DNA of 64,000 nt, from contig JBBDUG010000033.1 of assembly GCA_040904025.1 (NCBI GenBank), positions 365-64,364 on the forward strand, written 5' to 3'. Both the position numbers and the translations under genes were made by a program. Of the stretch, positions 211 to 45,441 are shown piece after piece (positions within the stretch are counted from its first letter, which is position 1; each line of letters begins with the position of its first letter). The notes under the pieces are model-generated. The model made no database searches. It had not been told where the DNA came from and was given only the letters and a program-made list of their open reading frames with translations. Source of the DNA: Minisyncoccota bacterium (GTDB lineage Bacteria > Patescibacteriota > Minisyncoccia > Phycocordibacterales > SW-6-46-9).

Positions 211-1391
211 GAGTAATATTTAAATAAGAGGTCGACAAGTGCTCCTGCAACATCCTGCGATTCACCGGAAGACGGAGTATGATGCATTTCAATACTCGGA
301 AGACTATTAAGCTCAAGAATTGCGCATTCCTGTTTTTTCCAAGAAATTGATATGTCTGGTATACAGATATCAATTCCAACCACACGCATACCGGTATATT
401 CTGCCACATCCTGAAATAGTCTCCTATTATCCCCATGCATCTCTCCTGTCACCTCTTCAAGATCACCTCCGAGTCTCATAAAGGGGTCACGTTGGAGATA
501 GACACGCTCACCATTCTCGGGAACAGAAGAGAGTGTGTATCCCAGCTCTCCAAGTAGCCTCTTTGTTGTCTCATCGACAACCAGAGAATGAAAGAAGTCT
601 CCCCCATCATCTCTCGTTCGATTTTTCTCTACTACTAGATCCCTGATGGATGAAGAACTATCCCCCACTACATGTGCGGGAACCTGCTTCACACATGCCA
701 CAAAATCATAATCAATAACAGTCGCACGATATACGAAAGAATTCTCAACATACCGCTCGACAATAAACCGAGGAGAATATTCTAAAACATGTCGTATTGC
801 CCCAACAAATGAATCCCTTGAACGGATATCGGTTGTTACATGTTGAGCAACAGACCCTCGTCGCGGCTTCACCACAAGCGGATATCCCAGCTTTTCTCCA
901 TATCTCATTGCTCCGTCTCTCTGAAGCAAGGAGAAGGACAGACCTTCAACAACAAGGAACCCGCCATCTTGCAAAAATTCTCTTGTCTCCTGTTTACAAT
1001 CTGGATCAAATAATCGAGAGGATATATGTTCAGCCAACGGAAAACCTTCAAATCGCACAACGATGTCTTCAAACTCTACTCTAAATTGATTTGTATACCC
1101 ATACCTACCACGCAGCCCCACCACTCTCACTCCCCGATTTCGTGCCTCTGTGATAAAAAGAGCAGAACGCTTTTGGATAGAAGAAAGATCAATTTCCTCT
1201 TCTTCTTTCAATATTCCCAGAGAAAGAAAAGCTTTCTCAAAAAGGGTATCTGCAAATGAGAGGAGAGTATGCGGAAGAGGAGTTGAAGGCAGTATCATTG
1301 ACATACATTCATCCAACCATGTTTGGATATGGTAGAAAGATGAGATTCCACAGCTGTCACATTTACCTGGCTTTAGCATAGATACATTCAT
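207..1391 (-). CDS. ATP-grasp superfamily protein (RimK / glutathione-synthetase / peptide-ligase-like) with a Cys-containing N-terminal region.
   Basis: GYPLVVKPRRGSVAQHV matches the ATP-grasp P-loop-like motif. The ORF-track start at 1571 would overlap tRNA-Lys, so a downstream Met (1391, MNVSMLKPG) is used. The start is uncertain. Confidence 0.55.
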   Translation of the reverse strand: MNVSMLKPGKCDSCGISSFYHIQTWLDECMSMILPSTPLPHTLLSFADTLFEKAFLSLGILKEEEEIDLSSIQKRSALFITEARNRGVRVVGLRGRYGYTNQFRVEFEDIVVRFEGFPLAEHISSRLFDPDCKQETREFLQDGGFLVVEGLSFSLLQRDGAMRYGEKLGYPLVVKPRRGSVAQHVTTDIRSRDSFVGAIRHVLEYSPRFIVERYVENSFVYRATVIDYDFVACVKQVPAHVVGDSSSSIRDLVVEKNRTRDDGGDFFHSLVVDETTKRLLGELGYTLSSVPENGERVYLQRDPFMRLGGDLEEVTGEMHGDNRRLFQDVAEYTGMRVVGIDICIPDISISWKKQECAILELNSLPSIEMHHTPSSGESQDVAGALVDLLFKYYS

Positions 1392-1472
1392 ACTATCGCA
1401 GAACGAGACGACAGGATAATAGAGGTATGTATTGAGAAAAAGAGCTAAACAAGGTATAGTATTTCGCGTACT

Positions 1473-1545
1473 CCGCTCGTAGCTCAGCTGGTAGAGCAGC
1501 GGCCTCTTAAGCCGACGGTCGAAGGTTCGAGTCCTTCCGAGCGGA
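1473..1545 (+). tRNA. tRNA-Lys (anticodon CTT)
   Basis: Cloverleaf read by eye. Acceptor stem ccgctcg/cgagcgg, D-arm gctc-agctggta-gagc, anticodon loop cuCUUaa with U33 and A37, T-arm gaagg-ttcgagt-ccttc. 73 nt, CCA not encoded. Confidence 0.75.
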
Positions 1546-1557
1546 CACGGGATACAA

Positions 1558-1584
1558 TAGGGCTTTATCAAGCCCTATTTTTTA
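1558..1584 (+). terminator. Rho-independent terminator downstream of tRNA-Lys
   Basis: Hairpin tagggct-ttatca-agcccta followed by TTTTTTAT. Confidence 0.7.
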
Positions 1585-1598
1585 TATCAATATAGTAC

Positions 1599-1628
1599 TT
1601 GACTATACATACATATATATTGTATAAT
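1599..1628 (+). promoter_or_regulatory. Near-consensus sigma-70-type promoter (TTGACT-N18-TATAAT) for the SPFH operon.
   Basis: TTGACT at 1599-1604, an 18-nt spacer, TATAAT at 1623-1628. GGAGG at 1673-1677 lies 6 nt before the ATG at 1684. Confidence 0.55.
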
Positions 1629-1683
1629 TGTATGCGGAATCACGTAATGAATCTTGAAATTCTTATATACACGGAGGTTTGCC

Positions 1684-2838
1684 ATGGATGACTACACGAT
1701 CGATATGGTGCTCTTAGCACTATCGTTAGCTGGTTACTCAATAGCCGTGGGGGGAATCCTATGGCTACTAGCTCAAAACAAGGTCTTTTTCGGATTTGTC
1801 CGAGAAAAACAAGCCATCAACATCATGCGGTTTGACGGATATAGTCGGACTATAATGGCGGCCGATAACCTGATGCTTCGACAAGAAGCAGAGGATAAAG
1901 GCTATCTTCCCAAAGAGTTATTAGAAGATGCGTGGGAGAAGTTGGAGGAAGAAAAAGGGAAGCTGGAGGAAAAGGAAACCTTTTCCTTTAACAATCCCCT
2001 TCCCCACGATATCGTCTTGGTCAAACCCCAAGAAGGGAGGCGTAGGAGTCTTTATCTCATTGGACTATGGCCTATTCATCAGGCCCATCGGTACAACCTA
2101 ATTGAAACCAAATACAAGCAGCAAGGTGGTGATAGCCTTTCAAGCGTCGTAGAGGAAACACAGACCGTCCAATACGACCACGTACCTTTAAATGAGATGG
2201 TACGGGTCTGCATCGTCGCCGATGTAGAGCTGCCAAGTGGAATTCCTGTTACAGCACACTTCTCTGTAACCTTGCGACTTCTCAACACCTATACCCCCAT
2301 CTTCGACATCAAAGATTCGGAGTGGTTGGGCACAGTGTTCGACCAATTAGGTCCGGTCTTAAGAGGGTTCCTAGGTCATTGCAAGTACGAAGAACTCGCA
2401 ACAGGAAAAACCCAGAATGAAGTCATCATGAAGTTCCTCAGAGGAAAAAAAGTAGTACCTCCAGGAGCAACGGAACTCCTTGCCCCGAAGCAAGATAATC
2501 TATCATACTGGGCCAACCAGTATCGCGTCGGTATCCTTCGAGTCGATCTCCAAACAGTTGATCCGTCAGGGGGGATCAAAGAGGAGATGCGAGAAGCAAC
2601 CACGATCGCCTACCGCATGGAGCAAGAAGGAAAAGCGGAGGCAAGTAAGATCCGACAAGTCGGAGATGCGCACGCACATGCACGAGATGTTGAATATGAA
2701 GCCATCCTCAAGAGAGGTAAAGGGGCGGGACTACATATCCGACGCTCAGAAGCAATTGAAAAAACGAACGCATCTACCCTTGTACTCGGAGACGAAAACG
2801 GTAGCAGAACAGCCATTCCAATCGGAGGGGATAAATAA
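1684..2838 (+). CDS. SPFH / band-7 (stomatin/flotillin/HflKC-like) membrane protein
   Basis: N-terminal TM helix. SPFH-like core (YRVGILRVDLQTVDP), then an Ala/Glu-rich helical region ending in ASTLVLGD. The start at 1684 is preferred over 1654 because of the GGAGG Shine-Dalgarno. Confidence 0.55.
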   Translation: MDDYTIDMVLLALSLAGYSIAVGGILWLLAQNKVFFGFVREKQAINIMRFDGYSRTIMAADNLMLRQEAEDKGYLPKELLEDAWEKLEEEKGKLEEKETFSFNNPLPHDIVLVKPQEGRRRSLYLIGLWPIHQAHRYNLIETKYKQQGGDSLSSVVEETQTVQYDHVPLNEMVRVCIVADVELPSGIPVTAHFSVTLRLLNTYTPIFDIKDSEWLGTVFDQLGPVLRGFLGHCKYEELATGKTQNEVIMKFLRGKKVVPPGATELLAPKQDNLSYWANQYRVGILRVDLQTVDPSGGIKEEMREATTIAYRMEQEGKAEASKIRQVGDAHAHARDVEYEAILKRGKGAGLHIRRSEAIEKTNASTLVLGDENGSRTAIPIGGDK

Positions 2839-3734
2839 TGAAAGAATTTGGATTAGTTCTACTCGCAATCTTTGCAATCTGGGGGCTGTTTGCAACGTGG
2901 AGAAAGTTATACCCACAAAGCCTCAATCGCGTGACGAATGTGAGTAGCCCAGCAACCTGGATTACTCTAGGAATTGGTGGCATCACAGCAGTCATCATGA
3001 TCCTAAACCTGACACCCTTTCAACAGGCGAAGGCAACGGATCAAATGATGTTCACCGGAATCATCATTCTCGCAATCTGCGGAGGATTCCTCGCAACGAA
3101 TAACCACCGTGGTTTTCAGGCAGCGGGGAAAGCAATGAAAGCACTGACGGCCTTTGCGTTCGCGGTGCTCCTCATCGTTACCGTATACGAGACGTGGTGG
3201 CAAGATCCCACCGACGCCTCGATGGACGCAGCGTTTCAGGGTGAAATTGCTGCTGTATCGAGTGAAGCGGAGGCTCAATCTCTCTACGAGAAAGTACTCT
3301 GCAACTCGGACTACAACGACAAGGTGTTAGCGGCATGGATGGACCACGCTCCCCTTGATGTAGCCTATCGCCAGAACCTCCGTGCTCGCGCGCTGGAGAT
3401 GAGGGCAAAAGAATGCCCGTCCGAAGACCGAGTCCAGAGAGTGCGAGTCAATCCGACCTACAACCCCTTTGAGAAAGGGCGGGGTGTACCCCACTTGTGG
3501 GCAACACAAGATACCGTGAAGCACGCATGGTTGATCGGAGAAACTCGTCTCGGCGCAAGCGAGAAGAACAAGGAGTTGATTCAGATCAGCCATTGCGGTG
3601 ATCCGAACAATTTCACCTCGCTCGGGGAATTCATCGAAGAGCGAAAAAAGAAGGACACGGTAACGTGCGCAGTACCTTACTTCTCAGTATATTCTTCCAC
3701 CGGTGACAGCTTGCTGTTTATCGCGGAAGACTGA
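2838..3734 (+). CDS. Polytopic membrane protein (3-4 N-terminal TM helices plus a soluble C-terminal domain) translationally coupled to the SPFH gene. Possibly an NfeD-like partner.
   Basis: TAATG stop/start overlap with the upstream gene. Hydrophobic N-terminal segments. No recognisable catalytic motif. Confidence 0.45.
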   Translation: MKEFGLVLLAIFAIWGLFATWRKLYPQSLNRVTNVSSPATWITLGIGGITAVIMILNLTPFQQAKATDQMMFTGIIILAICGGFLATNNHRGFQAAGKAMKALTAFAFAVLLIVTVYETWWQDPTDASMDAAFQGEIAAVSSEAEAQSLYEKVLCNSDYNDKVLAAWMDHAPLDVAYRQNLRARALEMRAKECPSEDRVQRVRVNPTYNPFEKGRGVPHLWATQDTVKHAWLIGETRLGASEKNKELIQISHCGDPNNFTSLGEFIEERKKKDTVTCAVPYFSVYSSTGDSLLFIAED

Positions 3735-3741
3735 GCAAAAA

Positions 3742-3785
3742 GGCCAGAGAGACTCAGTCGAGTCACTCTGGCCTTCTTTATTTAC
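3742..3785. terminator. Bidirectional intrinsic terminator between convergent genes
   Basis: A 13-14 bp stem (ggccagagagactc / gagtcactctggcc) with one mismatch, flanked by an A-run upstream and a T-rich tract downstream. Confidence 0.65.
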
Positions 3786-3792
3786 CCAAGAA

Positions 3793-4032
3793 TTAACGGA
3801 GTGTATTCTCGAGGATGCGCACTATAGCCCATGCGCTCACCATGATCACCATACCAACAATCCCCCATGTGATATGCTTCCGTCCTGTCTCTCGTGCTTC
3901 CGAACTTCCACCCTTTACAAGTGTCTTTAACACTCCAAACAGGAACAGTACCACCGCAACCGCAAAGAGAAGCAATATGAGCGGCTGTATGATAACGGTA
4001 AAGAGATTGTCGATGATGCGATCAAGTGACAT
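3793..4032 (-). CDS. Small two-TM hairpin protein, TrbC/VirB2-like (T4SS-pilin-like) module only. Paralog 1 of 5.
   Basis: The 79-aa protein has the pattern hydrophobic helix, short charged loop (GGSSEARETGRK), ITWGIVGMVIMVSAWAIV helix. This module is shared with the four upstream genes. Confidence 0.55.
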   Translation of the reverse strand: MSLDRIIDNLFTVIIQPLILLLFAVAVVLFLFGVLKTLVKGGSSEARETGRKHITWGIVGMVIMVSAWAIVRILENTLR

Positions 4033-4044
4033 TAAGAAGTGCTA

Positions 4045-4554
4045 CTAAGGTCGATATCGACAGAAGTCACCGATGTATCGCACATAATCAGTTGCACATT
4101 CATCGAGACAATCACCACGTCGAGGTCCATCTACGTGTCTGACCTCAGATGCATCAGAACATCGTTCTGTCCCCTCTAGATCTTGCCCGAAGTCACCGAG
4201 TGGTAAATCTACGAGATCTTCAATGTTCCCTTCTGGAGCAGCGCTGTCAAGATTGAAGGTGTTAACCAGAATATTCACAATTCCCCAAACGGAAACCATA
4301 ACGAAGATTCCGATAATACCCCAAATCATTGTCTGCTGTGCTTTCTTTCGCTCTTCCGGCTCTCCTGACTTTAGGATGTAGCGAAGTACCCCCCATAGGA
4401 ATAGAAGTACCGCAGCTGCAATAATGATTGGGACAAGCAAGTTAATGATGTCCTGGATCCAGAAGAAGATACCTTCAATCGTGGGTCCCTGCGCAGATGC
4501 AACAGATGGTGCTGCGAATACTGTAAACGCAAGCGTGTATACTAATTTTTTCAT
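4045..4554 (-). CDS. Secreted pilin-like protein: signal peptide, TrbC/VirB2-like two-TM module, and a C-terminal Cys-rich (4 Cys) acidic tail. Paralog 2.
   Basis: MKKLVYTLAFTVFAAPSVASA signal peptide. Module LFLWGVLRYILKSGEPEERKKAQQTMIWGIIGIFVMVSVWGIVNIL. Confidence 0.6.
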   Translation of the reverse strand: MKKLVYTLAFTVFAAPSVASAQGPTIEGIFFWIQDIINLLVPIIIAAAVLLFLWGVLRYILKSGEPEERKKAQQTMIWGIIGIFVMVSVWGIVNILVNTFNLDSAAPEGNIEDLVDLPLGDFGQDLEGTERCSDASEVRHVDGPRRGDCLDECATDYVRYIGDFCRYRP

Positions 4555-4671
4555 TGTAAGTAAATAATCAATGTAATTGTTAATGTAAGATAAGCCTATA
4601 GCATGGGCCGATCAATACTTTACATGATAAAAAAATAGTGGCTACTGAGCAAGGGTACGTGTGGATAAGCT

Positions 4672-5097
4672 CTAATCACATTCGTCTCCAAAGATGTCAC
4701 TTCCCACACCACAATCAATTGCACGGTCTCGAAAATTATCATCAGGTCTTGTCTCAAGTACATTGTCCCGAAGACCATCAGGCGTAGCTCCGAAGAATGT
4801 ATTAGAGAGAAGATTAACTATCCCCCATAAAGATACCATTACAAAAATCGACATAATACCCCAGATCATGAACTTCTTTCCCTCTTCACGTTTCTCGGGA
4901 TTGTTCTGATTTATGAATATAAAATTAAATACTCCCCAGAGGAAGAAGAGGATAGCCAATGCAAAGATGAGAGGAACGGCAAGTTCTATAAGATCAAATA
5001 CGATAAAGACAAGATCGGTTAAATTACACGGAGGTGTAGAACACTCTGCGGCGTGAGCAATATTGGGAAAAATAAGATTGGTTATAAAATCTATCAT
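4672..5097 (-). CDS. Pilin-like protein with the TrbC/VirB2-like two-TM module and Cys-containing N- and C-terminal extensions. Paralog 3.
   Basis: Module LFFLWGVFNFIFINQNNPEKREEGKKFMIWGIMSIFVMVSLWGIVNLL. ATGA overlap with the upstream gene. Confidence 0.6.
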   Translation of the reverse strand: MIDFITNLIFPNIAHAAECSTPPCNLTDLVFIVFDLIELAVPLIFALAILFFLWGVFNFIFINQNNPEKREEGKKFMIWGIMSIFVMVSLWGIVNLLSNTFFGATPDGLRDNVLETRPDDNFRDRAIDCGVGSDIFGDECD

Positions 5098-6752: not shown

Positions 6753-8027
6753 CTACAAATTATTATGCGCCTTCTCAATTGCATCCGACCCGCGCAACCT
6801 TCCGGATGTCACATCATCAACCAATGTCTCGAATACATCATAACTACGATACAGATTAACATCCGGCCAGCTCACAGATCTCACCGCTGCTCGATAGAAG
6901 AGGTTCATATACGCATCAGACGGCTCGCTCTGCAATAGATCTCGCCGTGCCGGTGGTAGGAGCTGTATAGAGGATATACTCTCCGCAAAAGCCCTGTTTG
7001 AGAGCAATATAGCCCCTCGAACCGCTTCGGATAGCTGCGAAGACCTCTCCAGCACAGCAATTCCCAACACATGTGCATATGTTCTTGGAACTTCATCACG
7101 TATCTGCGGTACTGAAGTGACATCAAAATTTAAATTCGGATTTCGAGAACGAATACGTCTGATCTCAGAGGCAAACCCGATATAAAGTCCAAGATTATTT
7201 GTTGCAAAGATAGATTGAGCTTCAGGAAGCGCAGAGTTCCATGTATACGTTGGAGTATCAGGGTCAGCAAATTCGGTATAGAAACGTACCACTGAGAGCA
7301 CAATGGATGCATTGCGTGAATTTTTTGGTGCTAATACTGATTCAACTCCATTTCCACTCCACTGTGCAATTGGGTTCCCTGACTGCAACAGAAGAAGTGA
7401 AAAGATATCTGCTGCATTGGCAATATTGGAGAATGTACCTAATGCGATAGCGGCACGCTCGATAGATGTCCCATTACGCACTCCCACCTCATCTACAAAA
7501 TCAGGAATATCACCCCAATATGCTGGTGGTGTTGCAATACCTGCGCCAGAAAGCAATGTTCTGTTCCAGTACATCACGAGAGGATCTACAGAGATAGGAA
7601 GAGCATATATTCCATTTGGTGCAGCAAATACTTCTCCTGCCTCTACAAATGAATCGCGAAAATTCCGTAGTGGAAAGCTTTCATATGGAATCGGAAGTAG
7701 ATCTCCTCGAACTCGCAGAAGTGTTGTCTCTGGATACAAAAGAAGATCGGGAGCACCACCATATGCAAGTGCCTCTACTAATATCTCCTCAAGTCTCTCG
7801 GATGAGATCTGTTGATATTGAAACTCAAACGGAGCCTCACTCTCTACAATCAAGGGCTCTACCGCATCTTCAAAATCTTCTCTTTCCATCTCCCCCCACA
7901 CTGAGAGTTGAGTCGATGGAAGTGCTTCACTACGTTTCTGAAGCGCAAATACAATAACAGCAAGGAGTGCAACAACGAGGAGTATGCCGATAACTACATA
8001 TTGAAATATACTTGTTTGTTCGTCCAT
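6753..8027 (-). CDS. Membrane-anchored extracellular solute-binding protein (SBP family 1 / MalE-like fold) with no adjacent ABC permease or ATPase.
   Basis: N-terminal TM helix. SBP_bac_1-like motifs LSVWGEME, GGAPDLLLY, YALPISVDPLVMYWNRTLL. Only a 2-nt gap to the downstream PKD/pilin-like gene. Confidence 0.5.
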   Translation of the reverse strand: MDEQTSIFQYVVIGILLVVALLAVIVFALQKRSEALPSTQLSVWGEMEREDFEDAVEPLIVESEAPFEFQYQQISSERLEEILVEALAYGGAPDLLLYPETTLLRVRGDLLPIPYESFPLRNFRDSFVEAGEVFAAPNGIYALPISVDPLVMYWNRTLLSGAGIATPPAYWGDIPDFVDEVGVRNGTSIERAAIALGTFSNIANAADIFSLLLLQSGNPIAQWSGNGVESVLAPKNSRNASIVLSVVRFYTEFADPDTPTYTWNSALPEAQSIFATNNLGLYIGFASEIRRIRSRNPNLNFDVTSVPQIRDEVPRTYAHVLGIAVLERSSQLSEAVRGAILLSNRAFAESISSIQLLPPARRDLLQSEPSDAYMNLFYRAAVRSVSWPDVNLYRSYDVFETLVDDVTSGRLRGSDAIEKAHNNL

Positions 8028-18282: not shown

Positions 18283-19320
18283 TTACCCTTTCACGAGATA
18301 TTTTCCATCATCTCGTTTCTCAAAGAGGTCGGCGTCTTGGAGATTAACCACCACTGTATTTGGCTTCACGTATCGTTCCTTAAGAACACGATCAACAATT
18401 TCATCGCGTGTCATTGGACCTTCCTGCTTAAGAATTTGTCGAATCACATCCTTTACAACTCCCTCCATATACCCCCATGTCTTGAGAGCATAGAGTCCAC
18501 GTCCAACGAGTACGAAGCGGTTATCTTTAATGAGTTCGTTGTGTGTAGTTGCAACATGTGCACTCTTATCAAAGAGTTCTTCTATTTTCTTTGTAACTTC
18601 AGTGAAGTGCATAGGAGATCCGTGTTGACGGATAACAAGGTAGGCATAGTCACGCACACCCTTTACCCGAACATTCGGGCTGTCAGCAAGTCCCCATTCA
18701 CCTAGAGGGTTTCGATCTACAACCTTCGATAGACGGAGCCATCGCTTTACAATTTCATCATCATTTAGATGACGATCAGGAGCTGATTCTCCATTCACTC
18801 GATCGCGGAACCAGTCGATAATCTCTTTTTCTGATACAAGATCTTCAGGTCCAAGCAGGTCATGAATAGTATGAAGGGCTTCTTTAACAGCTTCGTGCAC
18901 AACCTTATCTACAAACCAACGGTGTGTGAAGTGTCGGTCTTCTTTTTCATATTCAAATTGCTCTCCAAGTCGGAGAAGAAGATAGACATGATTCTGTACA
19001 TCGCGCTTCTGTGATATACGTCCAAGAAGTTCTGATTCAGGAACGACAATACCAAGCTCGTGTACAAATTCACGGAGTTCTGTAAGGGAATCATTATGCT
19101 CCTTGAGAGTCTCTGACTCTGCAAGTTTATTAAGTGAATGATTCTCAATCTGACGTACACGCTCACGTGTAATGTCATATATATTTCCAATCGCTTCAAG
19201 TGTCATGATCTCATCGGCTTCAAGTCCAAAGCGCTTAACGATAATATCTTGAGCACGCTCAGGGAGTTCTGAGATCAGACGCTTGGTGATTTGTTTTGGA
19301 TTAAACTTCAAAGCAGTCAT
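18283..19320 (-). CDS. DNA-binding protein combining an N-terminal sigma-70 region-4-like HTH with a C-terminal HARE-HTH (RNAP delta-subunit-like) domain
   Basis: N-terminal DIIVKRFGLEADEIMTLEAIGNIYDITRERVRQIENHSLNKL resembles the sigma region 4.2 consensus. C-terminal PMHFTEVTKKI ... FVLVGRGLYALKTWGY resembles the HARE-HTH of RpoE/delta. Confidence 0.5.
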   Translation of the reverse strand: MTALKFNPKQITKRLISELPERAQDIIVKRFGLEADEIMTLEAIGNIYDITRERVRQIENHSLNKLAESETLKEHNDSLTELREFVHELGIVVPESELLGRISQKRDVQNHVYLLLRLGEQFEYEKEDRHFTHRWFVDKVVHEAVKEALHTIHDLLGPEDLVSEKEIIDWFRDRVNGESAPDRHLNDDEIVKRWLRLSKVVDRNPLGEWGLADSPNVRVKGVRDYAYLVIRQHGSPMHFTEVTKKIEELFDKSAHVATTHNELIKDNRFVLVGRGLYALKTWGYMEGVVKDVIRQILKQEGPMTRDEIVDRVLKERYVKPNTVVVNLQDADLFEKRDDGKYLVKG

Positions 19321-19480: not shown

Positions 19481-22342
19481 TTACTTTGTTACAAAGTTCA
19501 CAAGACGATCAGGAACAACGATCACTTTTTCAACTTCTCTCCCCTCTAGACGCTGCTGAACTTCCTCTTCGGTGTGTGCTTTTTCTTTTAATTCATCCCT
19601 TGTGAGTCCAGAAGAAATAGAGAAGGAATGTCGAACCTTACCGTCTATTTGAACAACTATTGTAACTTCCTTTTCTTCTAAAAGATGTTGGTCATATTCT
19701 GGCCATGCTTCAAGATGAATTGATCCGTCTCCATCATATGTATGCCACAGCTCTTCTGTGAGATGAGAAGCGAAGGGTGCCAATACACGCAAGAAGGTTT
19801 TTATCTGATCTCTACCTATTTTCTTTTCTTCTTCCACAGCCTTCACAAAGATCATCATTTGAGACACAGCGGTATTAAACTTGAAGGCGATAATATCATT
19901 CCCAACTTTCTTTATCGTTGTGTGTAATTCGATATCAAGAGCTTGATTATCTTCATCCTGAATATAATCAGATAGACCCCAAACCCGCTCAAGGAAACGT
20001 CGCGCCCCCACCATATTATCTGTACTCCAGGCGATAGTGTTTTCAAATGGTCCCATAAACATCTCATATACACGAAGAGTGTCAGCGCCCACTTGTTCCA
20101 CAATATCGTCTGGATTAACAACGTTGCCAAAACGCTTACTCATTTTTCGTCCATCTGCTGCCTGTATCAACCCCACTGAATGAAGTTCTGTAAATGGCTC
20201 GTTTGTACTCACAACACCAATGTCGTACAAAAACTTGTGCCAAAATCGTGCATAGATCAAGTGACGCGTAGCGTGCTCTGCTCCACCGACATATACATCC
20301 ACAGGAGACCAATACTGCTCTTTTGAGGGATCGACAAACTCTGATTCATTACGCGGATCCATATATCGCAGATAATACCAACACGATCCTGCCCACTGAG
20401 GCATAGTATTTGTCTCTCGCTTCCCTTCTCCTCCACATTCCGGACACGTTGTATTCACCCACTCTTTTATATCTGCAAGTGGTGATTCTCCGGTACCTGT
20501 CGGTTCGTACGCTTCTACCTCGGGTAAGGTGACAGGAAGTTCATTCTCCGGTACTGGAACGACCCCACACTCTTCACAATGTATGAGAGGAATAGGTTCT
20601 CCCCAGTATCGCTGCCGAGAAAAAACCCAATCCTGAAGACGATAATTTACATTCTTCTTTCCATATTTTTCTGTAATCTTTTCTGCCGCTTCATCACTTT
20701 TAAGATTAGAGAAGTCCTCAGAGTCTACAAGTCTCCCCTTTTCGGTAACGATCTCCTTACCTAGATACATCCTTAGAATATGCTGCTCATCGATAAATTC
20801 ATCGTCTTCTGCGGTAAGTCTTAAAGCATCCTCAGGAGAATGCCATTCGTATTCAAAGGAAACTTCGTATTCTTCCGGGCTGGGCTCACATTCTTCACAA
20901 TCCTCAAACCACAATTCAAATGCCTTTTTATGTCGTATAAAATCATCCCGAGATGAGTCTTTTGGATTCAATGAACCACTGTGATATGAATATGTATTAG
21001 CTACTTCCGCACCAGCAGAAGCAAATCTATATCCCACCTCTTCTTCTATTTCTCGAATCAGTCCTTCTTCCCATGTCTCACCCTCATCAAGAGTACCTCC
21101 GGGAAGCCGATAGGTCGATGTCCTACTTAAATGTGCAATCTGTAGAAGAATCTTGTTATCTTTCTTTCTGCGAATAATACCATATGAACCACGTACAGGA
21201 ATCAGATCATCTTTATTTCCCGAAAACCACGGCATTTCATATTCCTTAGCAATAACCTGACGTATAGGAAGATTAAATTTCTGCGCAAATTCATGGTCGC
21301 GCTCATCATGAGCAGGTACTGCCATAATTGCACCCGTACCATATCCCCCCAACACATAATCAGCGACCCACACAGGGATCTCTTCGCCCGTAGCGGGATG
21401 AATTGCTTTGATACCAGTATCTACCCCAGTTTTCTCTTTTTCTTCGTTTGCGCGCTCTATTTCACTCTTTGAGAGAGATTTATCAACATACTCCTCTATA
21501 GCAGAATCAGCCTTCCACCCTTTATCAATCCATTCCCGTGCTTTTTCAGGAGAGACAACAAGAAAAGTTACGCCGAAGAATGTATCAGGTCGGGTGGTAA
21601 ATACCTCCACGTTATGCTGGCCATCGATCCCCTTGAGTTCAAATACAAAAGAGGTTCCCTCTTTCTTCCCTATCCAATTCCGTTGCATTTCCTTTATATT
21701 ATCCGGCCATTTAGGAAGCTCTTTCAGGTCCTCAAGAAGTCTGTCCGCATAGTCAGTGATACGCAACATCCACTGACGTATAGGGCGTTTTTCGATCTCG
21801 CTTCCACATCTCTCACACACACCCCCTTCAAGATCCTCATTAGCGAGCCCTGTCCTACAGGAGGGACACCAATTAATCGGTGCATGAGATTCATATGCAA
21901 GCCCTTTTTTAAATAACTGAAGAAAAATCCACTGCGTCCATTTATAATATTCGGGGTCTGTTGTATTAATTTCTCGGTCCCAATCATAATCAAATCCAAT
22001 GTTCTCAAGCTGTTCTTTGTATCGTGCAATATTTTTTTCTACCGCCTTTCGCGGATGAACTTGATTTTTAATAGCATAATTTTCTGCCGGCAAGCCAAAT
22101 GCATCCCACCCCATAGGGTGAAGCACCTGGTGTCCTTTCATACGCATGTGACGCGAATACACATCAGTCGCTATGTACCCTTTCGGATGTCCGACATGAA
22201 GCCCCTTTCCAGATGGATATGGAAACATATCGAGAATATAACTTTTGGGTTTATCTGAATCTTCTTCTGATTTATAGATATCTTCTTTTGCCCAAAATTC
22301 TCGCCACTTCTTCTCTATTTTTTTGTGATCATACTCTGCCAT
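19481..22342 (-). CDS. leuS: Leucyl-tRNA synthetase with a Nudix-hydrolase domain of about 140 aa inserted between the AHDERD/VIA segment and the KVNYRLQDW segment
   Basis: HIGH (HVGHPKGY), AHDERD, KMSKR. The insertion at about aa 375-535 contains a canonical Nudix box GTLDEGETWEEGLIREIEEEVGY (Gx5Ex7REUxEExGU). Confidence 0.9.
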   Translation of the reverse strand: MAEYDHKKIEKKWREFWAKEDIYKSEEDSDKPKSYILDMFPYPSGKGLHVGHPKGYIATDVYSRHMRMKGHQVLHPMGWDAFGLPAENYAIKNQVHPRKAVEKNIARYKEQLENIGFDYDWDREINTTDPEYYKWTQWIFLQLFKKGLAYESHAPINWCPSCRTGLANEDLEGGVCERCGSEIEKRPIRQWMLRITDYADRLLEDLKELPKWPDNIKEMQRNWIGKKEGTSFVFELKGIDGQHNVEVFTTRPDTFFGVTFLVVSPEKAREWIDKGWKADSAIEEYVDKSLSKSEIERANEEKEKTGVDTGIKAIHPATGEEIPVWVADYVLGGYGTGAIMAVPAHDERDHEFAQKFNLPIRQVIAKEYEMPWFSGNKDDLIPVRGSYGIIRRKKDNKILLQIAHLSRTSTYRLPGGTLDEGETWEEGLIREIEEEVGYRFASAGAEVANTYSYHSGSLNPKDSSRDDFIRHKKAFELWFEDCEECEPSPEEYEVSFEYEWHSPEDALRLTAEDDEFIDEQHILRMYLGKEIVTEKGRLVDSEDFSNLKSDEAAEKITEKYGKKNVNYRLQDWVFSRQRYWGEPIPLIHCEECGVVPVPENELPVTLPEVEAYEPTGTGESPLADIKEWVNTTCPECGGEGKRETNTMPQWAGSCWYYLRYMDPRNESEFVDPSKEQYWSPVDVYVGGAEHATRHLIYARFWHKFLYDIGVVSTNEPFTELHSVGLIQAADGRKMSKRFGNVVNPDDIVEQVGADTLRVYEMFMGPFENTIAWSTDNMVGARRFLERVWGLSDYIQDEDNQALDIELHTTIKKVGNDIIAFKFNTAVSQMMIFVKAVEEEKKIGRDQIKTFLRVLAPFASHLTEELWHTYDGDGSIHLEAWPEYDQHLLEEKEVTIVVQIDGKVRHSFSISSGLTRDELKEKAHTEEEVQQRLEGREVEKVIVVPDRLVNFVTK

Positions 22343-39910: not shown

Positions 39911-40918
39911 ATGACACAAAAGATAGATTTTCTTTCAGTAGGTGATATTACAACAGACGCATTCGTGGACATCGATGATGCTCGAATCGATACAGATAAA
40001 GATGAGGGCGACAAAGGATTCGAAGAAATCTGTTTCAGATTCGGTGATAAGATAGAATACGAAGATTTAACCCTTGTCTCCGCCGTCGGAAATGCACCTA
40101 ACGCAGCAGTCTCTGCACATCGACTCGGACTTAAAACTGGGCTCCTCACAAATCTCGGAGATGATACATATGGACAAAAATGTGTTGAGACACTAAAAGA
40201 GGAAGGTATCTCAGATGAATATATACAAGTGCACGAAGGAAAATCTTCAAATTTCCATATCGTTCTTCGCTTTGGACCTGAGCGTACAATATTGGTAAAG
40301 CATGAGGTATATCCATATTCTCTCCCAGAGGACATGGATCATCCAGAATGGATATATCTTTCTTCTCTTGGGTCCACATCTCTCGAACATCACCACGAGA
40401 TCGCACAATACCTAAAAGAACACGATGAGATAAAATTTGCATTCCAACCGGGGACATTCCAAATGGAGCTCGGGTATGAAAAACTCAAAGATGTATACGA
40501 AGTATCCACTGTCTTCTTTGCAAACAAGGAAGAATATCAGCGTATTCTTGAAACTGACGAGGGAGATATTCCAACTCTTCTTGAGACTATGCATGAACGC
40601 GGACCAAAAATAGCTGTTCTCACTGACGGACCAAATGGTGCATATACATATGACGGTTCCGAAAAATGGTCGATCCCCATGTATCCGGATCCCAAGCCCC
40701 CTGTTGATAGAACAGGAGCAGGAGACTCTTTCTCTTCAACCTTCACCACCGCACTTGCACTCGGGAATGATATCCCAACTGCACTCTCGTGGGGACCGAT
40801 AAATTCAATGTCGGTAGTGCAGTATATTGGAGCACAAGAAGGACTTCTTACCCGAGAAAAACTCGAGGAATATCTCCAAAACGCTCCTGAGGACTACACT
40901 CCACAAAAACTCTCTTAG
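39911..40918 (+). CDS. PfkB-family carbohydrate/nucleoside kinase
   Basis: N-terminal GG-like region (LSVGDITTDAFV), C-terminal TGAGDSF (anion-hole GAGD motif). Confidence 0.7.
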   Translation: MTQKIDFLSVGDITTDAFVDIDDARIDTDKDEGDKGFEEICFRFGDKIEYEDLTLVSAVGNAPNAAVSAHRLGLKTGLLTNLGDDTYGQKCVETLKEEGISDEYIQVHEGKSSNFHIVLRFGPERTILVKHEVYPYSLPEDMDHPEWIYLSSLGSTSLEHHHEIAQYLKEHDEIKFAFQPGTFQMELGYEKLKDVYEVSTVFFANKEEYQRILETDEGDIPTLLETMHERGPKIAVLTDGPNGAYTYDGSEKWSIPMYPDPKPPVDRTGAGDSFSSTFTTALALGNDIPTALSWGPINSMSVVQYIGAQEGLLTREKLEEYLQNAPEDYTPQKLS

Positions 40919-42792
40919 ATATCTAATATCTCTAAATGAGATGGGAGTTCCTTCATCTGACTAATGAAGTTCTTTCTCTCTTCTCCTGTCTCTGGTAATT
41001 CTCCATGTTCGATAAGGTGGTTGGCAAGAAAAAGCCACGATATTACCCCCGCCATGGTAAATACATCACGACGTGCAAATTTCTGAGCAGATGTACTCAT
41101 ACGATCATAGAGGGCCTCATCGGTAAGGAGATCAAGAAGATGTTTCCCTACTGACTCTGTATCCCCTATCTCTTCAACTACAAAACCAGTTACCCCACCC
41201 TTCATCTGAAGAGGGATACCCCCTGCGTTATATGAGATAAGGGGTTTTCCTTTCATAAGAGCTTCTGTCACTTTAACTTCAAAGCCTTCACGATGTGAGA
41301 GTTGCAAGGCAACCTTGCTACCACACATTAATACGTTGAGAAGTTGATCAATATGCGGGAGACGTGCCACCTTCACATCCTCTGCCAATTCTTCATATTC
41401 ACTCTCCAACAACTCCATCACTAAATTGTATATTGGAATACCATCAGGATCATCAACAGATCCATGGCCGACAATAACAAGTTGTGGTTTCTCTCCCTCT
41501 TCGAACTCTCTATACACATCACTAAACGCCTCTAAGACATCTGGGATTCCTTTGGAGGGATCGAAACGGGCAACCTGGATGACATACGGACGAGAATGAT
41601 CAAGTGGTTTTTGATTTGCCTCAATGAGTATTTTGTCAAAAAGCTTGAAGTAATACTCCATATCTTCATCAGAAAGTGGCTTGTTGAGTCCATCGAGAGG
41701 ATCAGTGGTTGGCGGAGTCAGTATCACATCATCTTTCTGGACATTTTCCGGCACAAAATCTGGGATTGGATGAGAAACGAAAAGATCAGCTTGCTGTGCA
41801 AATTTCCAAATGAAATTCCACACACGATTCTGTGGAGTACCGCTTACATCTGTTAACTCAGAGACAATTTGAATATGTGAACGATATATTATTTTCGCAT
41901 CTGGATTCTTTTCCTTAATGAAGGGGATAAGTCCGGAGGGCTGAGGATCATCAACAACAATAACATCTGCATCTGTAATAGTATCCTCAAGTAACTCAGC
42001 ATTCTCTCGCATCCACCCTTGATAGACTTCTATATCTCTTTCTGTTAGCTCTGTTCCATTCTTAGCCACTCCTTGCAGTACATTATGGAATTTAGTTTTT
42101 GTGATCAGAAATGCATCCGCTCGTTCTTCAAGAACGTGCCATGATGCATCTACACCCCATAAATGGAGTAGTCGTATATGAGCATGGCGCATGAGAGCAA
42201 CACCACCTCCCCGTGGAGTTGCTGAGATGAAACGAATCTTCTTTCCTTTAAACTTCTCTGTAAGTGTATCCAACGCCTCTATTTCTTCCGGGGTTGAGAT
42301 AGATTCGTATGCTTCCCGAGAGACTAAATCGTGCACAGATACACAGCAATCTTTTTCCACATCCACAACTAGCGTCTCGTCATCTTTAAAATGTTCTCGT
42401 GCATATACCGCAAGACGTGCACAGTTCTCTTCAGAGATCCCGTTTGGCCGTACAAATGTCACAATGTCATTCTCAAGCCAAAGGAGTGAAGCAAGATTGT
42501 GTAAATCTCCTTCTCCCGAGAGCCCCGCTCCAATATATTTAAATCCTTCGTGACTAGCTCTTTTTTTAAGCCACCTGCTTATATATTCAAAATCATCTTC
42601 ACCTGTCGGAACTTTTACATGCAGAGAAACATCCTCTGCACCTCGTTCGGTAACACGAAACTCACCCTTACTGTATCCAATTCCAAGAAATACAGAAATA
42701 GGTATATTGAGAGCCTCGATACGAGCACGAATATCTGATAGGTCTTGAGAAATAGTATCTGGGTGGTCTGGCATATGGTTCCGTTTCATCAA
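40915..42792 (-). CDS. Glycosyltransferase (GT-B, GT4-like) with an N-terminal extension of about 150 aa of unknown function
   Basis: C-terminal glycos_transf_1-like region (VALQLSHREGFEVKVTEALMKGKPLI, E-x7-E). Confidence 0.55.
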   Translation of the reverse strand: MMKRNHMPDHPDTISQDLSDIRARIEALNIPISVFLGIGYSKGEFRVTERGAEDVSLHVKVPTGEDDFEYISRWLKKRASHEGFKYIGAGLSGEGDLHNLASLLWLENDIVTFVRPNGISEENCARLAVYAREHFKDDETLVVDVEKDCCVSVHDLVSREAYESISTPEEIEALDTLTEKFKGKKIRFISATPRGGGVALMRHAHIRLLHLWGVDASWHVLEERADAFLITKTKFHNVLQGVAKNGTELTERDIEVYQGWMRENAELLEDTITDADVIVVDDPQPSGLIPFIKEKNPDAKIIYRSHIQIVSELTDVSGTPQNRVWNFIWKFAQQADLFVSHPIPDFVPENVQKDDVILTPPTTDPLDGLNKPLSDEDMEYYFKLFDKILIEANQKPLDHSRPYVIQVARFDPSKGIPDVLEAFSDVYREFEEGEKPQLVIVGHGSVDDPDGIPIYNLVMELLESEYEELAEDVKVARLPHIDQLLNVLMCGSKVALQLSHREGFEVKVTEALMKGKPLISYNAGGIPLQMKGGVTGFVVEEIGDTESVGKHLLDLLTDEALYDRMSTSAQKFARRDVFTMAGVISWLFLANHLIEHGELPETGEERKNFISQMKELPSHLEILDI

Positions 42793-42850: not shown

Positions 42851-43303
42851 TCAAACCTTCCTTTCATACATCTCATTGCTCTTAAAACACTTAATTGTTC
42901 CCTTACAAGGTCCCCAGAGACCGTCCGGCATTTCATCCAAATCTCTCCAATGCCACCCTTCTATTTTATGAGGCTCTTTTACTTCAAGTTCACCTGAAAA
43001 GTCTTCGCATAAAAAGTTGACCGTAATCCAATGCTCATGACCTGCTCCATCAAAATCATCAATGAGTCCAATAAAGGAAAGAGAGTTTACTTTAAGACCA
43101 GTCTCTTCATACATCTCTCGTACTGCAGCATCATGGCAGGTCTCCCCATAGTCAACAGCGCCCCCGGGAAATGTCCAGGATTCAGTCTTTTCTTTTCGCG
43201 CCTTTCTATGACCAAGGAGTACAGAGTTTCCTTTTTTTATCATGATTCCTACACCTACTCGAACCTGACCCCCTTTTTGTTTATTCATATTATTTTCTCT
43301 CAA
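42851..43303 (-). CDS. Nudix hydrolase
   Basis: Nudix box GGAVDYGETCHDAAVREMYEETGL. Confidence 0.8.
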   Translation of the reverse strand: MRENNMNKQKGGQVRVGVGIMIKKGNSVLLGHRKARKEKTESWTFPGGAVDYGETCHDAAVREMYEETGLKVNSLSFIGLIDDFDGAGHEHWITVNFLCEDFSGELEVKEPHKIEGWHWRDLDEMPDGLWGPCKGTIKCFKSNEMYERKV

Positions 43304-44279
43304 TTACCCGCTTCACTGCCTTTTTGATATCTTCAACCCCCATTCCATATTTTTCAATGAGTTCGTCTGGTTGTCCCGATTGTCCAAACCTATCCTCAAC
43401 TCCCACAAACTCCTGAGGAACAGGGTTATTCCGTACCAACACTTCTGCAACAGCAGATCCCATACCACCAGCAATCTGATGTTCCTCAACGGTAACAACC
43501 GCACCCGCTCGCTGTGCTTCACGAATCACCGCCCCTTCATCGATTGGCTTAATTGTATGATTATTCAATACGTTCACCTTAATCCCCTCTTCCTCAAGCT
43601 CTTTTGCGGCAACAAGTGAATTGTGTACTAAAATTCCGCAGGCAATAATGGAGGCTTCGGGCTTATCGCTCTCCCAAAGAAGATTTGCCTTCCCAAGTTC
43701 AAGGGGAGAATCTTTCGTAGTTACCATCGGCGTCTTCGACCGCCCCATACGAATATAGACAGGTTCATCAATCTTCACCGCTGCATGTACTATCTTTCGA
43801 ACCTCTTCCATGTCACAACCAACCATCACATTCATATTCGGCTGAACCCGCATAAGGGCGATGTCTTCAAGTGCCTGATGTGTTGCACCGTCTGGACCCA
43901 CTGAGACACCCGCATGACAACCCACAATCTTTACCGGTACTTCATTTAAAGAAATAGTGGTACGAATCTGCTCATTATTTCTCCCCGGAGAAAATGCTGC
44001 ATATGAAGCGATAAAGGGGATTTTGCCGTAGTTGGCCATACCTGAGGCAACTGTTGCCATGTTCTGCTCGGCAACTCCTAATTCAATATATCGATCAGGA
44101 TATTTCTCTTTAAACCAATGAGTCCGTGTTGACTCCGCAAGATCAGCACAGAGCGCAACAACCTGATCATTTTCATCAGCAACTTCAACTAACCCCTTAC
44201 CGTATCCATCACGCGTGTATTCACGCGCAACATCCTCTGAAAATATATCCGGATTTAATTTTTGTGATTCTACAATCAT
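43290..44279 (-). CDS. Transketolase, C-terminal subunit (pyrimidine-binding and C-terminal domains)
   Basis: Transket_pyr-like region (GVAEQNMATVASGMA) and the C-terminal domain. Encoded as a separate gene. Confidence 0.8.
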   Translation of the reverse strand: MIVESQKLNPDIFSEDVAREYTRDGYGKGLVEVADENDQVVALCADLAESTRTHWFKEKYPDRYIELGVAEQNMATVASGMANYGKIPFIASYAAFSPGRNNEQIRTTISLNEVPVKIVGCHAGVSVGPDGATHQALEDIALMRVQPNMNVMVGCDMEEVRKIVHAAVKIDEPVYIRMGRSKTPMVTTKDSPLELGKANLLWESDKPEASIIACGILVHNSLVAAKELEEEGIKVNVLNNHTIKPIDEGAVIREAQRAGAVVTVEEHQIAGGMGSAVAEVLVRNNPVPQEFVGVEDRFGQSGQPDELIEKYGMGVEDIKKAVKRVIERK

Positions 44280-44577: not shown

Positions 44578-45441
44578 TTAATCACTATGCGGCGCCTCAA
44601 TATCACCCTGGAGCGTCCGCAGCTCTTTAAGCCACTTCTGCTCTTCTTCCGTTGACGGCGGCTTGCCGTGCCAATGATAGTCAAACTCAATCTCTTTAAT
44701 TCCCTTTCCGGGAATAGTATGCGCCAAGATTAATGTTGGCTTCTCATACACCGCCTTTACCTCATCAATGGCATCTACAAACTCTTCGATATTGTGTCCA
44801 TTCACCTCCATAACATGCCAATTAAATGCCTCATACTTCTCTCGCATTGGCTCGAGTGGCATGACATTTTCTGTCATTCCATTGATCTGAATATTATTAC
44901 GATCCATTACAGCAGTTAGGTTCGATAACTTATTCGCACCCGCAAACATAGCAGCTTCCCAGGTATTCCCTGCCTGCTGCTCACCATCGGACATCAAACA
45001 ATAGGTACGAAAGTCTCTATCATCCATACGGGCAGCATACGCCATTCCCGCCGCCTGTCCGAGACCGGATCCAAGAGGTCCAGAAGTCGTCTCAACCGCA
45101 GGAAGTCTCATTCGCTCGGGATGCCCCTGTAGTCTTGACCCAAAAGAACGCAGAGTCTTTGTCTCTTCGATGGGGAAATACCCAGCATGTGCCATGGTGG
45201 CATATCGCACAGGAGTGATGTGTCCATTAGAGAGCACTAATCGATCTCGCTCATCCCACATGGGATCATCCGGCTTATGATTGAGTATATGAAAATAGAA
45301 GGCGGTAAATATGTCGGTCATGCCCAAAGGTCCCGCGGTATGTCCGGAACCAGCATCCTCAAGCATATCGATAATAGTCTGGCGAATTTCATTCGCCTTT
45401 TTCTCAAGCTCTTTTACCTTTTCTTCAGAAATTGTTGTCAT
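44578..45441 (-). CDS. Transketolase, N-terminal subunit (TPP-binding domain)
   Basis: GHTAGPLGMTD, SDGEQQAGNTWEA (GDG-like TPP motif). Confidence 0.8.
   Translation of the reverse strand: MTTISEEKVKELEKKANEIRQTIIDMLEDAGSGHTAGPLGMTDIFTAFYFHILNHKPDDPMWDERDRLVLSNGHITPVRYATMAHAGYFPIEETKTLRSFGSRLQGHPERMRLPAVETTSGPLGSGLGQAAGMAYAARMDDRDFRTYCLMSDGEQQAGNTWEAAMFAGANKLSNLTAVMDRNNIQINGMTENVMPLEPMREKYEAFNWHVMEVNGHNIEEFVDAIDEVKAVYEKPTLILAHTIPGKGIKEIEFDYHWHGKPPSTEEEQKWLKELRTLQGDIEAPHSD

Follow-up and report, generated by a model that had tools for sequence, protein, structure and literature searches.

The 64-kb window (the whole stretch of DNA that we analyzed) carries on its minus strand a leuS gene, at 19481..22342, whose 953-amino-acid product is a bacterial-type leucyl-tRNA synthetase (LeuRS) with a complete Nudix domain inserted into its CP1 editing domain. 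The reading frame contains no internal stop codon, and both the synthetic and the editing motifs of the synthetase are intact. Taking the evidence as a whole, we think it probable, although by no means secure, that the protein is a housekeeping LeuRS that tethers an autonomous Nudix enzyme, predicted to be active as a nucleotide or dinucleoside-polyphosphate pyrophosphatase. Few enzymes are as conserved as the aminoacyl-tRNA synthetases, and the bacterial ones seldom gain whole new catalytic domains. In this LeuRS a second enzyme is nested within the editing domain, whose family (PF13603) reportedly never acts as a host according to a 2026 survey of such insertions (PMC13114784). Our literature search found no description of a LeuRS–Nudix protein, and the architecture is apparently undescribed so far.

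A Nudix domain nested in the LeuRS editing domain

The leuS product belongs to the bacterial LeuRS family, scoring 1028 bits against the NCBIfam model TIGR00396 (leuS_bact; cut-off 548.4), and its AF2 model (pLDDT 91) had E. coli LeuRS (5omw/4aq7) as the top Foldseek match, with a TMt of 0.83. In its fold, its HIGH and KMSKS motifs and its CP1 editing residues it resembles the canonical bacterial enzymes of E. coli (4AQ7/5OMW) and T. thermophilus (1H3N/2BYT). The HIGH motif of the synthetic site reads HVGH (amino acids 49–52, 22187..22198; this and all other features described here lie on the minus strand), with H49, V50, G51 and H52 invariant in an alignment of 109 sequences, and the KMSKS-type motif reads KMSKR (amino acids 733–737, 20132..20146), with K733 and K736 invariant in the same alignment and M734, S735 and R737 conserved in at least 90% of the sequences. 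An anticodon-binding domain (Pfam PF08264, 74 bits) follows at amino acids 805–914 (19601..19930).

The editing domain is present in two pieces. Its N-terminal part, before the insertion point, spans amino acids 221–367 (21242..21682) and was recognized by PF13603 with 201.8 bits (amino acids 221–368, profile positions 1–144 of 185). It contains the threonine-rich motif TTRPDT (amino acids 249–254, 21581..21598), presumably the equivalent of T247–T252 of E. coli LeuRS, as well as AHDERD (amino acids 344–349, 21296..21313), which we take to correspond to E. coli D342/D345 and to include the conserved aspartate that holds the mischarged residue by its amino group. T249, T250, R251, D253 and T254 of the former and H345, D346, R348 and D349 of the latter are invariant among the 109 aligned sequences. 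The C-terminal remainder of CP1 lies past the insertion, at amino acids 533–565 (20648..20746), and includes G536 and S541, which are conserved among homologues. HIGH, KMSKS, TTRPDT and the editing aspartate are invariant in LeuRSs with and without the Nudix insert alike.

A sequence-only reading of the window had placed a complete Nudix domain, in frame and with an intact box, between the AHDERD and NYRLQDW segments of this protein, and had counted about 200 residues where about 60 are usual. Both statements held up: RQVIA ends at amino acid 365 and NVNYRLQDW starts at amino acid 564. The alignment with a reference LeuRS that the same reading had called for delimited the insertion, with residues 2–367 of the query aligning to residues 2–365 of the T. 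thermophilus enzyme (1H3N) and residues 533–728 to residues 378–579, so that the extra segment comprises amino acids 368–532 (20747..21241). Unlike T. thermophilus LeuRS, which has a CP1 loop of ~12 residues at this place (366–377), the window protein thus has 165 amino acids, made up of the Nudix domain and its linkers. The window protein lacks any equivalent of T. thermophilus residues 580–627, presumably the leucine-specific domain. Because CP1 is already an insertion in the Rossmann fold, the Nudix domain is doubly nested.

The Nudix fold proper, at amino acids 386–518 (20789..21187), matched Pfam PF00293 with 49.8 bits (cut-off 21.1, E 4.4e-13) over profile positions 5–132 of 134. A Nudix fold accounts for the whole insert; it is of the alpha/beta/alpha type and bears the box on a loop–helix–loop. 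The Nudix box, GTLDEGETWEEGLIREIEEEVGY (amino acids 416–438, 21029..21097), fits the consensus G-x5-E-x7-R-E-U-x-E-E-x-G-U, with G416, E422, R430, E431, E434, E435 and G437 in place and tyrosine at the last U position, as in most homologues. This pattern occurred in none of 20,000 shuffled versions of the LeuRS protein. In composition the insert resembles the rest of leuS (GC 0.406 vs 0.431). Within the Nudix domain there is also a subtype-specific CxxC, CEEC (amino acids 482–485, 20888..20899), which among the 83 inserts described below is shared only with that of one other protein (P0128, CVEC).

Conservation, spread and loss of the insert

A survey of LeuRS relatives, likewise proposed by the sequence-only reading, showed that 83 of the 120 best homologues have a Nudix domain in the same position. 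These 83 inserts have diverged much further than their hosts, with a mean pairwise identity of 31% vs 65% for the LeuRS core. Nonetheless, G416, E431 and E435 are kept in all 83 and E434 in 82, and the retention of the metal-binding glutamates despite such low identity argues for selection on the predicted catalytic activity. W500 is conserved in 82 of 83 inserts, and residues 422 and 430 co-vary, the commonest pairs being E–R (65 inserts), Q–A (9) and M–K (4).

Judged from these sequences, the Nudix–LeuRS architecture is widespread and patchy in Patescibacteria, extending beyond the genome that contributed the window. In neighbor-joining trees the insert subtrees largely mirror those of the LeuRS core. 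The trees are star-like at depth, and we therefore limit our claim to the patchy pattern and at least one unambiguous recent deletion. The species counts from a scan of GTDB genomes, made with a narrower insert alignment (A3), are to be read as 'at least'. Owing to the rapid divergence of the insert, a single-sequence search of a library of 50%-identity representatives recovered few LeuRS hosts and is unsuited to counting.

Presence and absence can be compared at a single locus. The window and the contig of its closest relative (P0122/L074) share a gene order of YchF, a ~175-amino-acid protein, LeuRS and a Sigma70_r4/HARE-HTH gene, and the two LeuRSs are 78% identical, with the insert absent from the relative. 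The two leuS loci, one fused and one not, are orthologous. The unfused LeuRS of the relative has a 10-residue loop, VEEGEIRERG, which is suggestive of a Nudix-box remnant and too short to judge. A closer pair consists of P0153 (972 amino acids) and P0175 (809 amino acids), which are 95% identical outside a clean, in-frame 420-bp indel, the shorter protein retaining both linkers. As read from these two sequences, the indel represents at least one unambiguous, recent and clean deletion and indicates that the Nudix domain is dispensable.

Relatives of the Nudix domain

When we compared 36 inserts with the NCBIfam Nudix equivalogs, none reached a family cut-off, and every family score fell far short of it. 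The most frequent sub-threshold family was RppH/NudH, an RNA pyrophosphohydrolase that also acts as a Nudix Ap4A/Ap5A hydrolase (31 of the 36, best E 3.6e-12), and the window insert scored 22.5–23.7 bits against the PRK00714 models, whose cut-offs are 116–139; because its scores fall so far below (for example, 23.7 vs 116 bits), we did not place it in this family. It likewise scored below the cut-off for the MutT 8-oxo-dGTPase (TIGR00586; 30 vs 97.9 bits). Together with RppH/NudH, the ApnA hydrolases of Aquifex (3I7U), lupin (1F3Y) and M. tuberculosis (Rv2985) recurred among the profile and fold matches, which also included DIPP, and the best structural neighbor, 2AZW, is itself uncharacterized. 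Ap4A-type substrates are compatible with these weak similarities. Nudix ApnA hydrolases carry an aromatic residue ~16–18 residues past the box. Among the 83 inserts, F (47) and Y (28) predominate at position 450 and F (36) and Y (33) at position 451, ~17 residues past the box, and the window protein has Y451 with an offset that differs in its subtype; we regard this resemblance as a lead only.

Relatives of the domain also exist as independent proteins. Against the insert profile, free-standing orthologues of 160–181 amino acids gave E values of 1e-36 to 1e-42, and their existence points to a Nudix module that may be autonomous. In none of the four neighborhoods that we inspected did such a gene lie beside leuS; one of them lay in an island with four Nudix genes, two HIT genes and a cytidine deaminase. 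Proteins of the 2AZW type (the E. faecalis structural-genomics protein and its metagenomic and MAG orthologues P0392, P0394 and the L010 ORF) are similarly independent, with 146–181 amino acids, whereas the LeuRS copy is spliced into an enzyme. Weaker relatives (E ~1e-4) included a Nudix–Nudix–GrpE fusion and a protein with four Nudix matches.

Homologous Nudix domains occupy at least three different CP1 loops of LeuRS, with up to three domains per protein, and no synthetase other than LeuRS was a host among those long matches to the insert search that had recognizable Pfam domains. The use of several CP1 loops by a family with a single synthetase host could mean that association with LeuRS is selected rather than a result of neutral hitch-hiking. 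Searches with short queries returned only short proteins or fragments and are therefore uninformative about other full-length hosts. At other loops, the LeuRSs of other Patescibacteria contain Ham1/ITPase, HAD or alpha/beta-hydrolase domains, guests that share a house-cleaning theme.

The window contains a second, stand-alone Nudix gene at 42851..43303, as had been reported earlier. Its 150-amino-acid product matched PF00293 with 88.2 bits and belongs to another subfamily than the insert, its closest named family being MutT at a sub-cut-off score (54.6 vs 97.9 bits). Duplication of this gene was considered as the source of the insert and rejected on the basis of the different subfamily and an identity of 38% across 69 residues around the box.

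Possible roles of the tethered domain

We infer that the Nudix domain is catalytically active, that it acts on small nucleotides and that it works independently of LeuRS function. The host would be the organism's ordinary housekeeping LeuRS (judged within the 64-kb window), with its synthetic and editing sites intact, and one surface loop of its CP1 domain would house a complete, small Nudix pyrophosphohydrolase that is predicted to be catalytically competent and is most likely an autonomous module. This module would bind Mg2+ or Mn2+ through the invariant Glu431, Glu434 and Glu435 of the Nudix helix and cleave the nucleoside-diphosphate–X bond of a small nucleotide substrate, for which our best guess would be either dinucleoside polyphosphates or (d)NTPs that are non-canonical or surplus, in a form of nucleotide house-cleaning. 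We do not expect the domain to contribute to leucylation or proofreading. Instead, LeuRS would serve as a constitutively expressed carrier, with insertions tolerated in its CP1 loops, and the module would have a long history in Patescibacteria, passed on with leuS in a largely vertical manner and cleanly deleted at least once. The sequence-only reading had offered Ap4A-like compounds or aminoacyl-adenylates as speculative substrates. Hydrolysis of aminoacyl-adenylates is not classical Nudix chemistry because that substrate lacks a diphosphate linkage.

A functional coupling to the synthetase is a possibility that we take seriously while considering it unlikely. The Nudix domain would then clear the Ap4A/Np4N by-products that arise from Leu-AMP and an NTP at the LeuRS synthetic site, or act in the manner of RppH on LeuRS-bound RNA ends or caps, and its tether in CP1 would allow local clearance or nucleotide salvage under a minimal nucleotide metabolism. 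The prominence of RppH/NudH among the sub-threshold similarities, the ApnA hydrolases, DIPP and Rv2985 among the other matches and the repeated occupation of loops in the same LeuRS domain all speak for such a role, with the aromatic residue past the box as a mere lead, and there is a precedent in the NMNAT–Nudix fusions, in which an adenylyltransferase of the HIGH superfamily is joined to a Nudix domain that degrades its product (PMC7824862). Against it stand the clean loss of the domain between the near-identical P0153 and P0175, the location of free-standing copies away from leuS at all four loci inspected, the presence of unrelated hydrolases in LeuRS and the failure of the inserts to reach any NCBIfam cut-off. 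Moreover, LeuRS is to our knowledge not among the strongest producers of Ap4A, which counts against coupling. Broader still, and in our view rather doubtful, is the idea that LeuRS CP1 in Patescibacteria is a docking platform for cleaning hydrolases, with the Nudix domain coupled to the synthetase through Ap4A/Np4N or an RppH-like activity as a selected device for translation-linked metabolite repair or signaling.

The Nudix fold might alternatively have no catalytic role, sensing a ligand instead or providing a structural or interaction module, for example in nucleotide-responsive regulation of LeuRS or in partner docking. We consider this quite improbable given that the three glutamates of the Nudix helix persist in nearly every insert, that the box of the window protein itself matches the consensus perfectly and that the changes at E422 and R430 are correlated, which fits a conserved fold better than decay. 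The remaining explanation, that the insert is an assembly chimera, a frameshifted pseudogene, an intein or a mobile insertion that is removed before the protein acts, draws on a presence/absence pattern among close relatives that superficially resembles that of a mobile element, and we give it hardly any credence. The frame is uninterrupted, an identical 953-amino-acid protein is present in NCBI (from a Paceibacterota MAG), which gives two sources and two contigs, up to 102 kb long, and the 83 homologues with the insert at the same site have insert and core subtrees that are largely congruent; in addition, the insert resembles the rest of leuS in composition and the catalytic residues appear to be under selection. 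Hint, intein and homing-endonuclease families were absent from the Pfam matches on LeuRS at E values up to 0.01. Intein, pseudogene and chimera were each rejected on these grounds, in agreement with the earlier view that the protein is a true fusion.

The housekeeping LeuRS with its putatively autonomous guest has partial parallels. In NF040702 (isoleucine--tRNA ligase, N-acetyltransferase domain-containing), an essential adenylate-forming enzyme likewise carries a second catalytic domain, although both this family and the NMNAT–Nudix fusions differ from the LeuRS protein, whose guest is nested within CP1, in host, guest or topology. If the domain is autonomous, it would exemplify the packing of house-cleaning enzymes into essential genes by streamlined genomes, and if dinucleoside polyphosphates are its substrate, the turnover of an alarmone or by-product would be physically tied to a synthetase. 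Patescibacteria, in which the architecture is common, form a large uncultured radiation of organisms with minimal genomes, and natural pairs with and without the domain at 95% identity constitute a ready-made experiment. Annotation pipelines label these proteins plain 'leucine--tRNA ligase', which masks the predicted second activity. Some LeuRS genes with the same architecture come from MAGs that bear Bacilli or Bacillales in their record titles.

A Nudix domain nested in leucyl-tRNA synthetase

The leuS ORF (19481..22342, minus strand) encodes 953 amino acids without an internal stop, and its sequence identifies the product as a bacterial-type leucyl-tRNA synthetase (LeuRS): it scored 1028 bits against NCBIfam TIGR00396 (cut-off 548) and contains the Pfam class I catalytic, editing (PF13603; aa 221–368, profile positions 1–144 of 185) and anticodon-binding domains. 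Pfam also recognized a PF00293-type NUDIX domain (aa 386–518; 49.8 bits, gathering score 21.1, E = 4.4e-13), whose Nudix box, GTLDEGETWEEGLIREIEEEVGY (aa 416–438; 21029..21097, minus strand), matched the full signature, a pattern that did not arise once when the LeuRS protein was shuffled 20,000 times. LeuRS and Nudix hydrolases are textbook families, and membership tests placed the protein in both. Alignment to Thermus thermophilus LeuRS (1H3N) paired query residues 2–367 with 2–365 and 533–728 with 378–579, which delimited the extra segment to aa 368–532 (165 residues; 20747..21241, minus strand), compared with ~12 residues in the Thermus enzyme. This position (site A) is in the C-terminal portion of CP1, the editing domain, past the AHDERD segment, which makes the nesting double: the Nudix domain interrupts CP1, and CP1 in turn interrupts the Rossmann fold. 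The sequence-only reading had described an in-frame, stop-free insertion with an intact Nudix box, and both features were borne out. Separately, Thermus residues 580–627, presumably its leucine-specific domain, had no counterpart in the window LeuRS (around aa 724–730, where the alignment jumps from 579 to 628).

The motifs HVGH (aa 49–52), KMSKR (aa 733–737), AHDERD (aa 344–349) and the threonine-rich editing motif TTRPDT (aa 249–254) were all present, and each was invariant or nearly so in an alignment of 109 homologues with (fused) or without (unfused) the Nudix insert. An AlphaFold model of the whole protein had a mean pLDDT of 91 (78 to 97 in the insert region), and its best structural match was the aminoacylation conformation of E. 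coli LeuRS (TMt 0.83). GC content was 0.406 in the insert versus 0.431 in the remainder of the gene and the skew profile was continuous across it; neither measure pointed to recent acquisition from a foreign source.

The closest relative's LeuRS (P0122, at locus L074; 799 aa, 78% identical to the window LeuRS over aligned residues) has a 10-residue loop at site A in place of the Nudix domain. In both loci leuS is preceded by a YchF GTPase gene and a gene for a ~175-aa protein that has no Pfam match, and a protein of 345–348 aa with an N-terminal Sigma70 region 4 and a HARE-HTH domain is encoded directly downstream in all three related loci (window 18283..19320, minus strand; L074 8566..9603; L076 4066..5112), so that leuS sits in the orthologous housekeeping locus. 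The P0122 loop, VEEGEIRERG (L074 around 7080..7130, aa 360–385), faintly echoes the Nudix box (EGE...IRE...G), either by chance or as what a deletion left behind.

Distribution and inheritance of the insert

A 953-aa protein identical to the window LeuRS occurs in public data on two contigs, the longer reaching 102 kb, which come from two sources, and is listed under the NCBI title 'MAG: leucine--tRNA ligase [Candidatus Paceibacterota bacterium]', and ~150 extra residues were found at the same position in 83 of the 120 best full-length LeuRS homologues, the other 37 being without them. Both observations argue against the insert being an artefact, which we regard as very improbable, and the survey upholds the earlier claim of a true fusion. 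The source names of the homologues, as given in the records, were Patescibacteria, Kaiserbacteria and Paceibacterota. Scanning GTDB species genomes with a sequence pattern returned, among the matches listed and thus as a lower bound, LeuRS-embedded copies in Saccharibacteria-, Parcubacteria- and Patescibacteria-titled contigs, and one Gracilibacteria LeuRS (genetic code 25) also had a Nudix domain. Two Nudix-LeuRS genes with the insert exactly at site A were on MAG contigs titled Bacillales/Bacilli (L014 1831..4698; L015 698..3514), whose binning we take as titled; their inserts resembled those of the Patescibacteria loci L016 and L007, a hint that either the module or leuS may have moved from one phylum to another.

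Proteins with and without the insert were interleaved when the LeuRS core was used to build a neighbor-joining tree. The insert tree recovered mostly the same subclades, which indicates that the insert has been co-inherited vertically within clades; the trees were star-like at deep nodes. One loss is unambiguous: P0153 (972 aa) and P0175 (809 aa) are 95% identical and differ by a clean 420-bp in-frame indel, and because P0175 keeps the two linkers that normally flank the insert in fused proteins, its short form arose by deletion. Many unfused relatives instead have at site A the short loop GG(D/N)I...AYT.xG, canonical for bacterial LeuRS. The window insert belongs to a divergent subtype, 71% identical to that of P0128 and at most 40% identical to all others, with an extra six-residue loop (aa 455–460; 20963..20980, minus strand), where the predicted structure had its lowest confidence within the Nudix domain, and a CxxC motif (CEEC, aa 482–485; 20888..20899, minus strand), both shared only with P0128.

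Catalytic residues and relationship to the host enzyme

Although mean pairwise identity among the 83 fused proteins was only 31% for the insert versus 65% for the LeuRS core, G416, E431 and E435 were kept in all 83, E434 and W500 in 82 and G437 in 78; position 491 was E in 74 and D in 9, and residues 422 and 430 changed together (E-R in 65, Q-A in 9, M-K in 4). Against this pattern of residues, we consider a non-catalytic Nudix domain improbable. The nearest neighbour of the insert by both sequence profile and structure was 2AZW, an uncharacterised structural-genomics protein from E. faecalis, followed by a mixture of NudG, MutT1, the Aquifex and lupin Ap4A hydrolases and the Rv2985 diadenosine polyphosphatase, with YmfB, DIPP, RppH and ADP-ribose pyrophosphatases also among the neighbours. 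None of 36 diverse inserts reached a curated cut-off in an NCBIfam scan; RppH/NudH was the most frequent match below it (31 of 36, best E 3.6e-12), ahead of NudB, YtkD, NudE and MutT. The mixed neighbours and the unreached cut-offs place the domain among Nudix enzymes of the small (d)NTP, ApnA or RNA-5'-end type, but in no named subfamily.

In addition to the Nudix domain, some Patescibacteria LeuRSs of 1128–1278 aa (P0134, P0164, P0186, P0197, P0200, P0216, P0234, P0243 and that of L011, about 1270..4720, genetic code 25) had other enzyme domains nested in different loops. Near aa 240, where CP1 begins, this was an alpha/beta 'Ser_hydrolase' or a Ham1/ITPase domain; the others were a serine hydrolase (near aa 592) and a HAD phosphatase (near aa 638). 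Placement of the Nudix domain also varied, with two copies in the L007 LeuRS (1282..4644; site A and ~25 aa downstream, before KVNYKIRDW), one near aa 256 and none at site A in that of L008 (2233..5253), and three stretches in P0280, which shares with L008 the site near aa 250. Weak relatives of the insert (P0318, P0364 and many hits of 270–340 aa; E around 1e-4) were often two-domain tandems.

We lean towards the Nudix domain being an autonomous house-cleaning module. Free-standing proteins of 160–181 aa matched the insert profile at E 1e-36 to 1e-42 and had motifs in common with it, and in none of the four neighbourhoods examined was the free-standing gene next to leuS. One of them, P0394, is encoded within an island (L078 3554..8880) in the order HIT, cytidine/dCMP deaminase, Nudix, Nudix, Nudix, HIT, Nudix, which looks like a nucleotide-hydrolase cluster. 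These orthologues away from leuS favour autonomy over a Nudix domain coupled to LeuRS chemistry or bound RNA, as do the unrelated hydrolases nested in other LeuRSs and, among the weak matches, a Nudix-Nudix-GrpE fusion and a protein with four Nudix matches. Such coupling, which we hold to be possible but clearly less probable than an autonomous module, is favoured by the presence of homologous Nudix domains at no fewer than three different CP1 loops and by LeuRS being the sole synthetase host among the long insert-search hits with recognisable Pfam domains. It also has a parallel in the known NMNAT-Nudix design, in which a HIGH-superfamily adenylyltransferase is fused to a Nudix domain that degrades its product (PMC7824862). 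The rest of our weighing goes to other explanations.

Precedents and the separate Nudix gene

Full-text literature searches turned up no account of a LeuRS with a Nudix domain. Synthetases with added enzyme domains are known, for example an IleRS with a GNAT domain, for which NCBIfam has a model. Nudix-LeuRS proteins are already public, and the databases list their Pfam domain as a precomputed match, so the novelty lies in recognition and interpretation rather than in new sequence. A 2026 survey of domain insertions reported that PF13603 is always the inserted partner, not once the host, across its data (PMC13114784); the Nudix-LeuRS family is a counter-example.

The window's other Nudix gene, a free-standing MutT-like one (42851..43303), shares 14 nt with the end of a split transketolase (N-terminal half, 44578..45441; pyrimidine-binding/C-terminal half, 43290..44279) and is followed by a gene for a 625-aa TreT-like trehalose synthase/GT1 (40915..42792), all on the minus strand.
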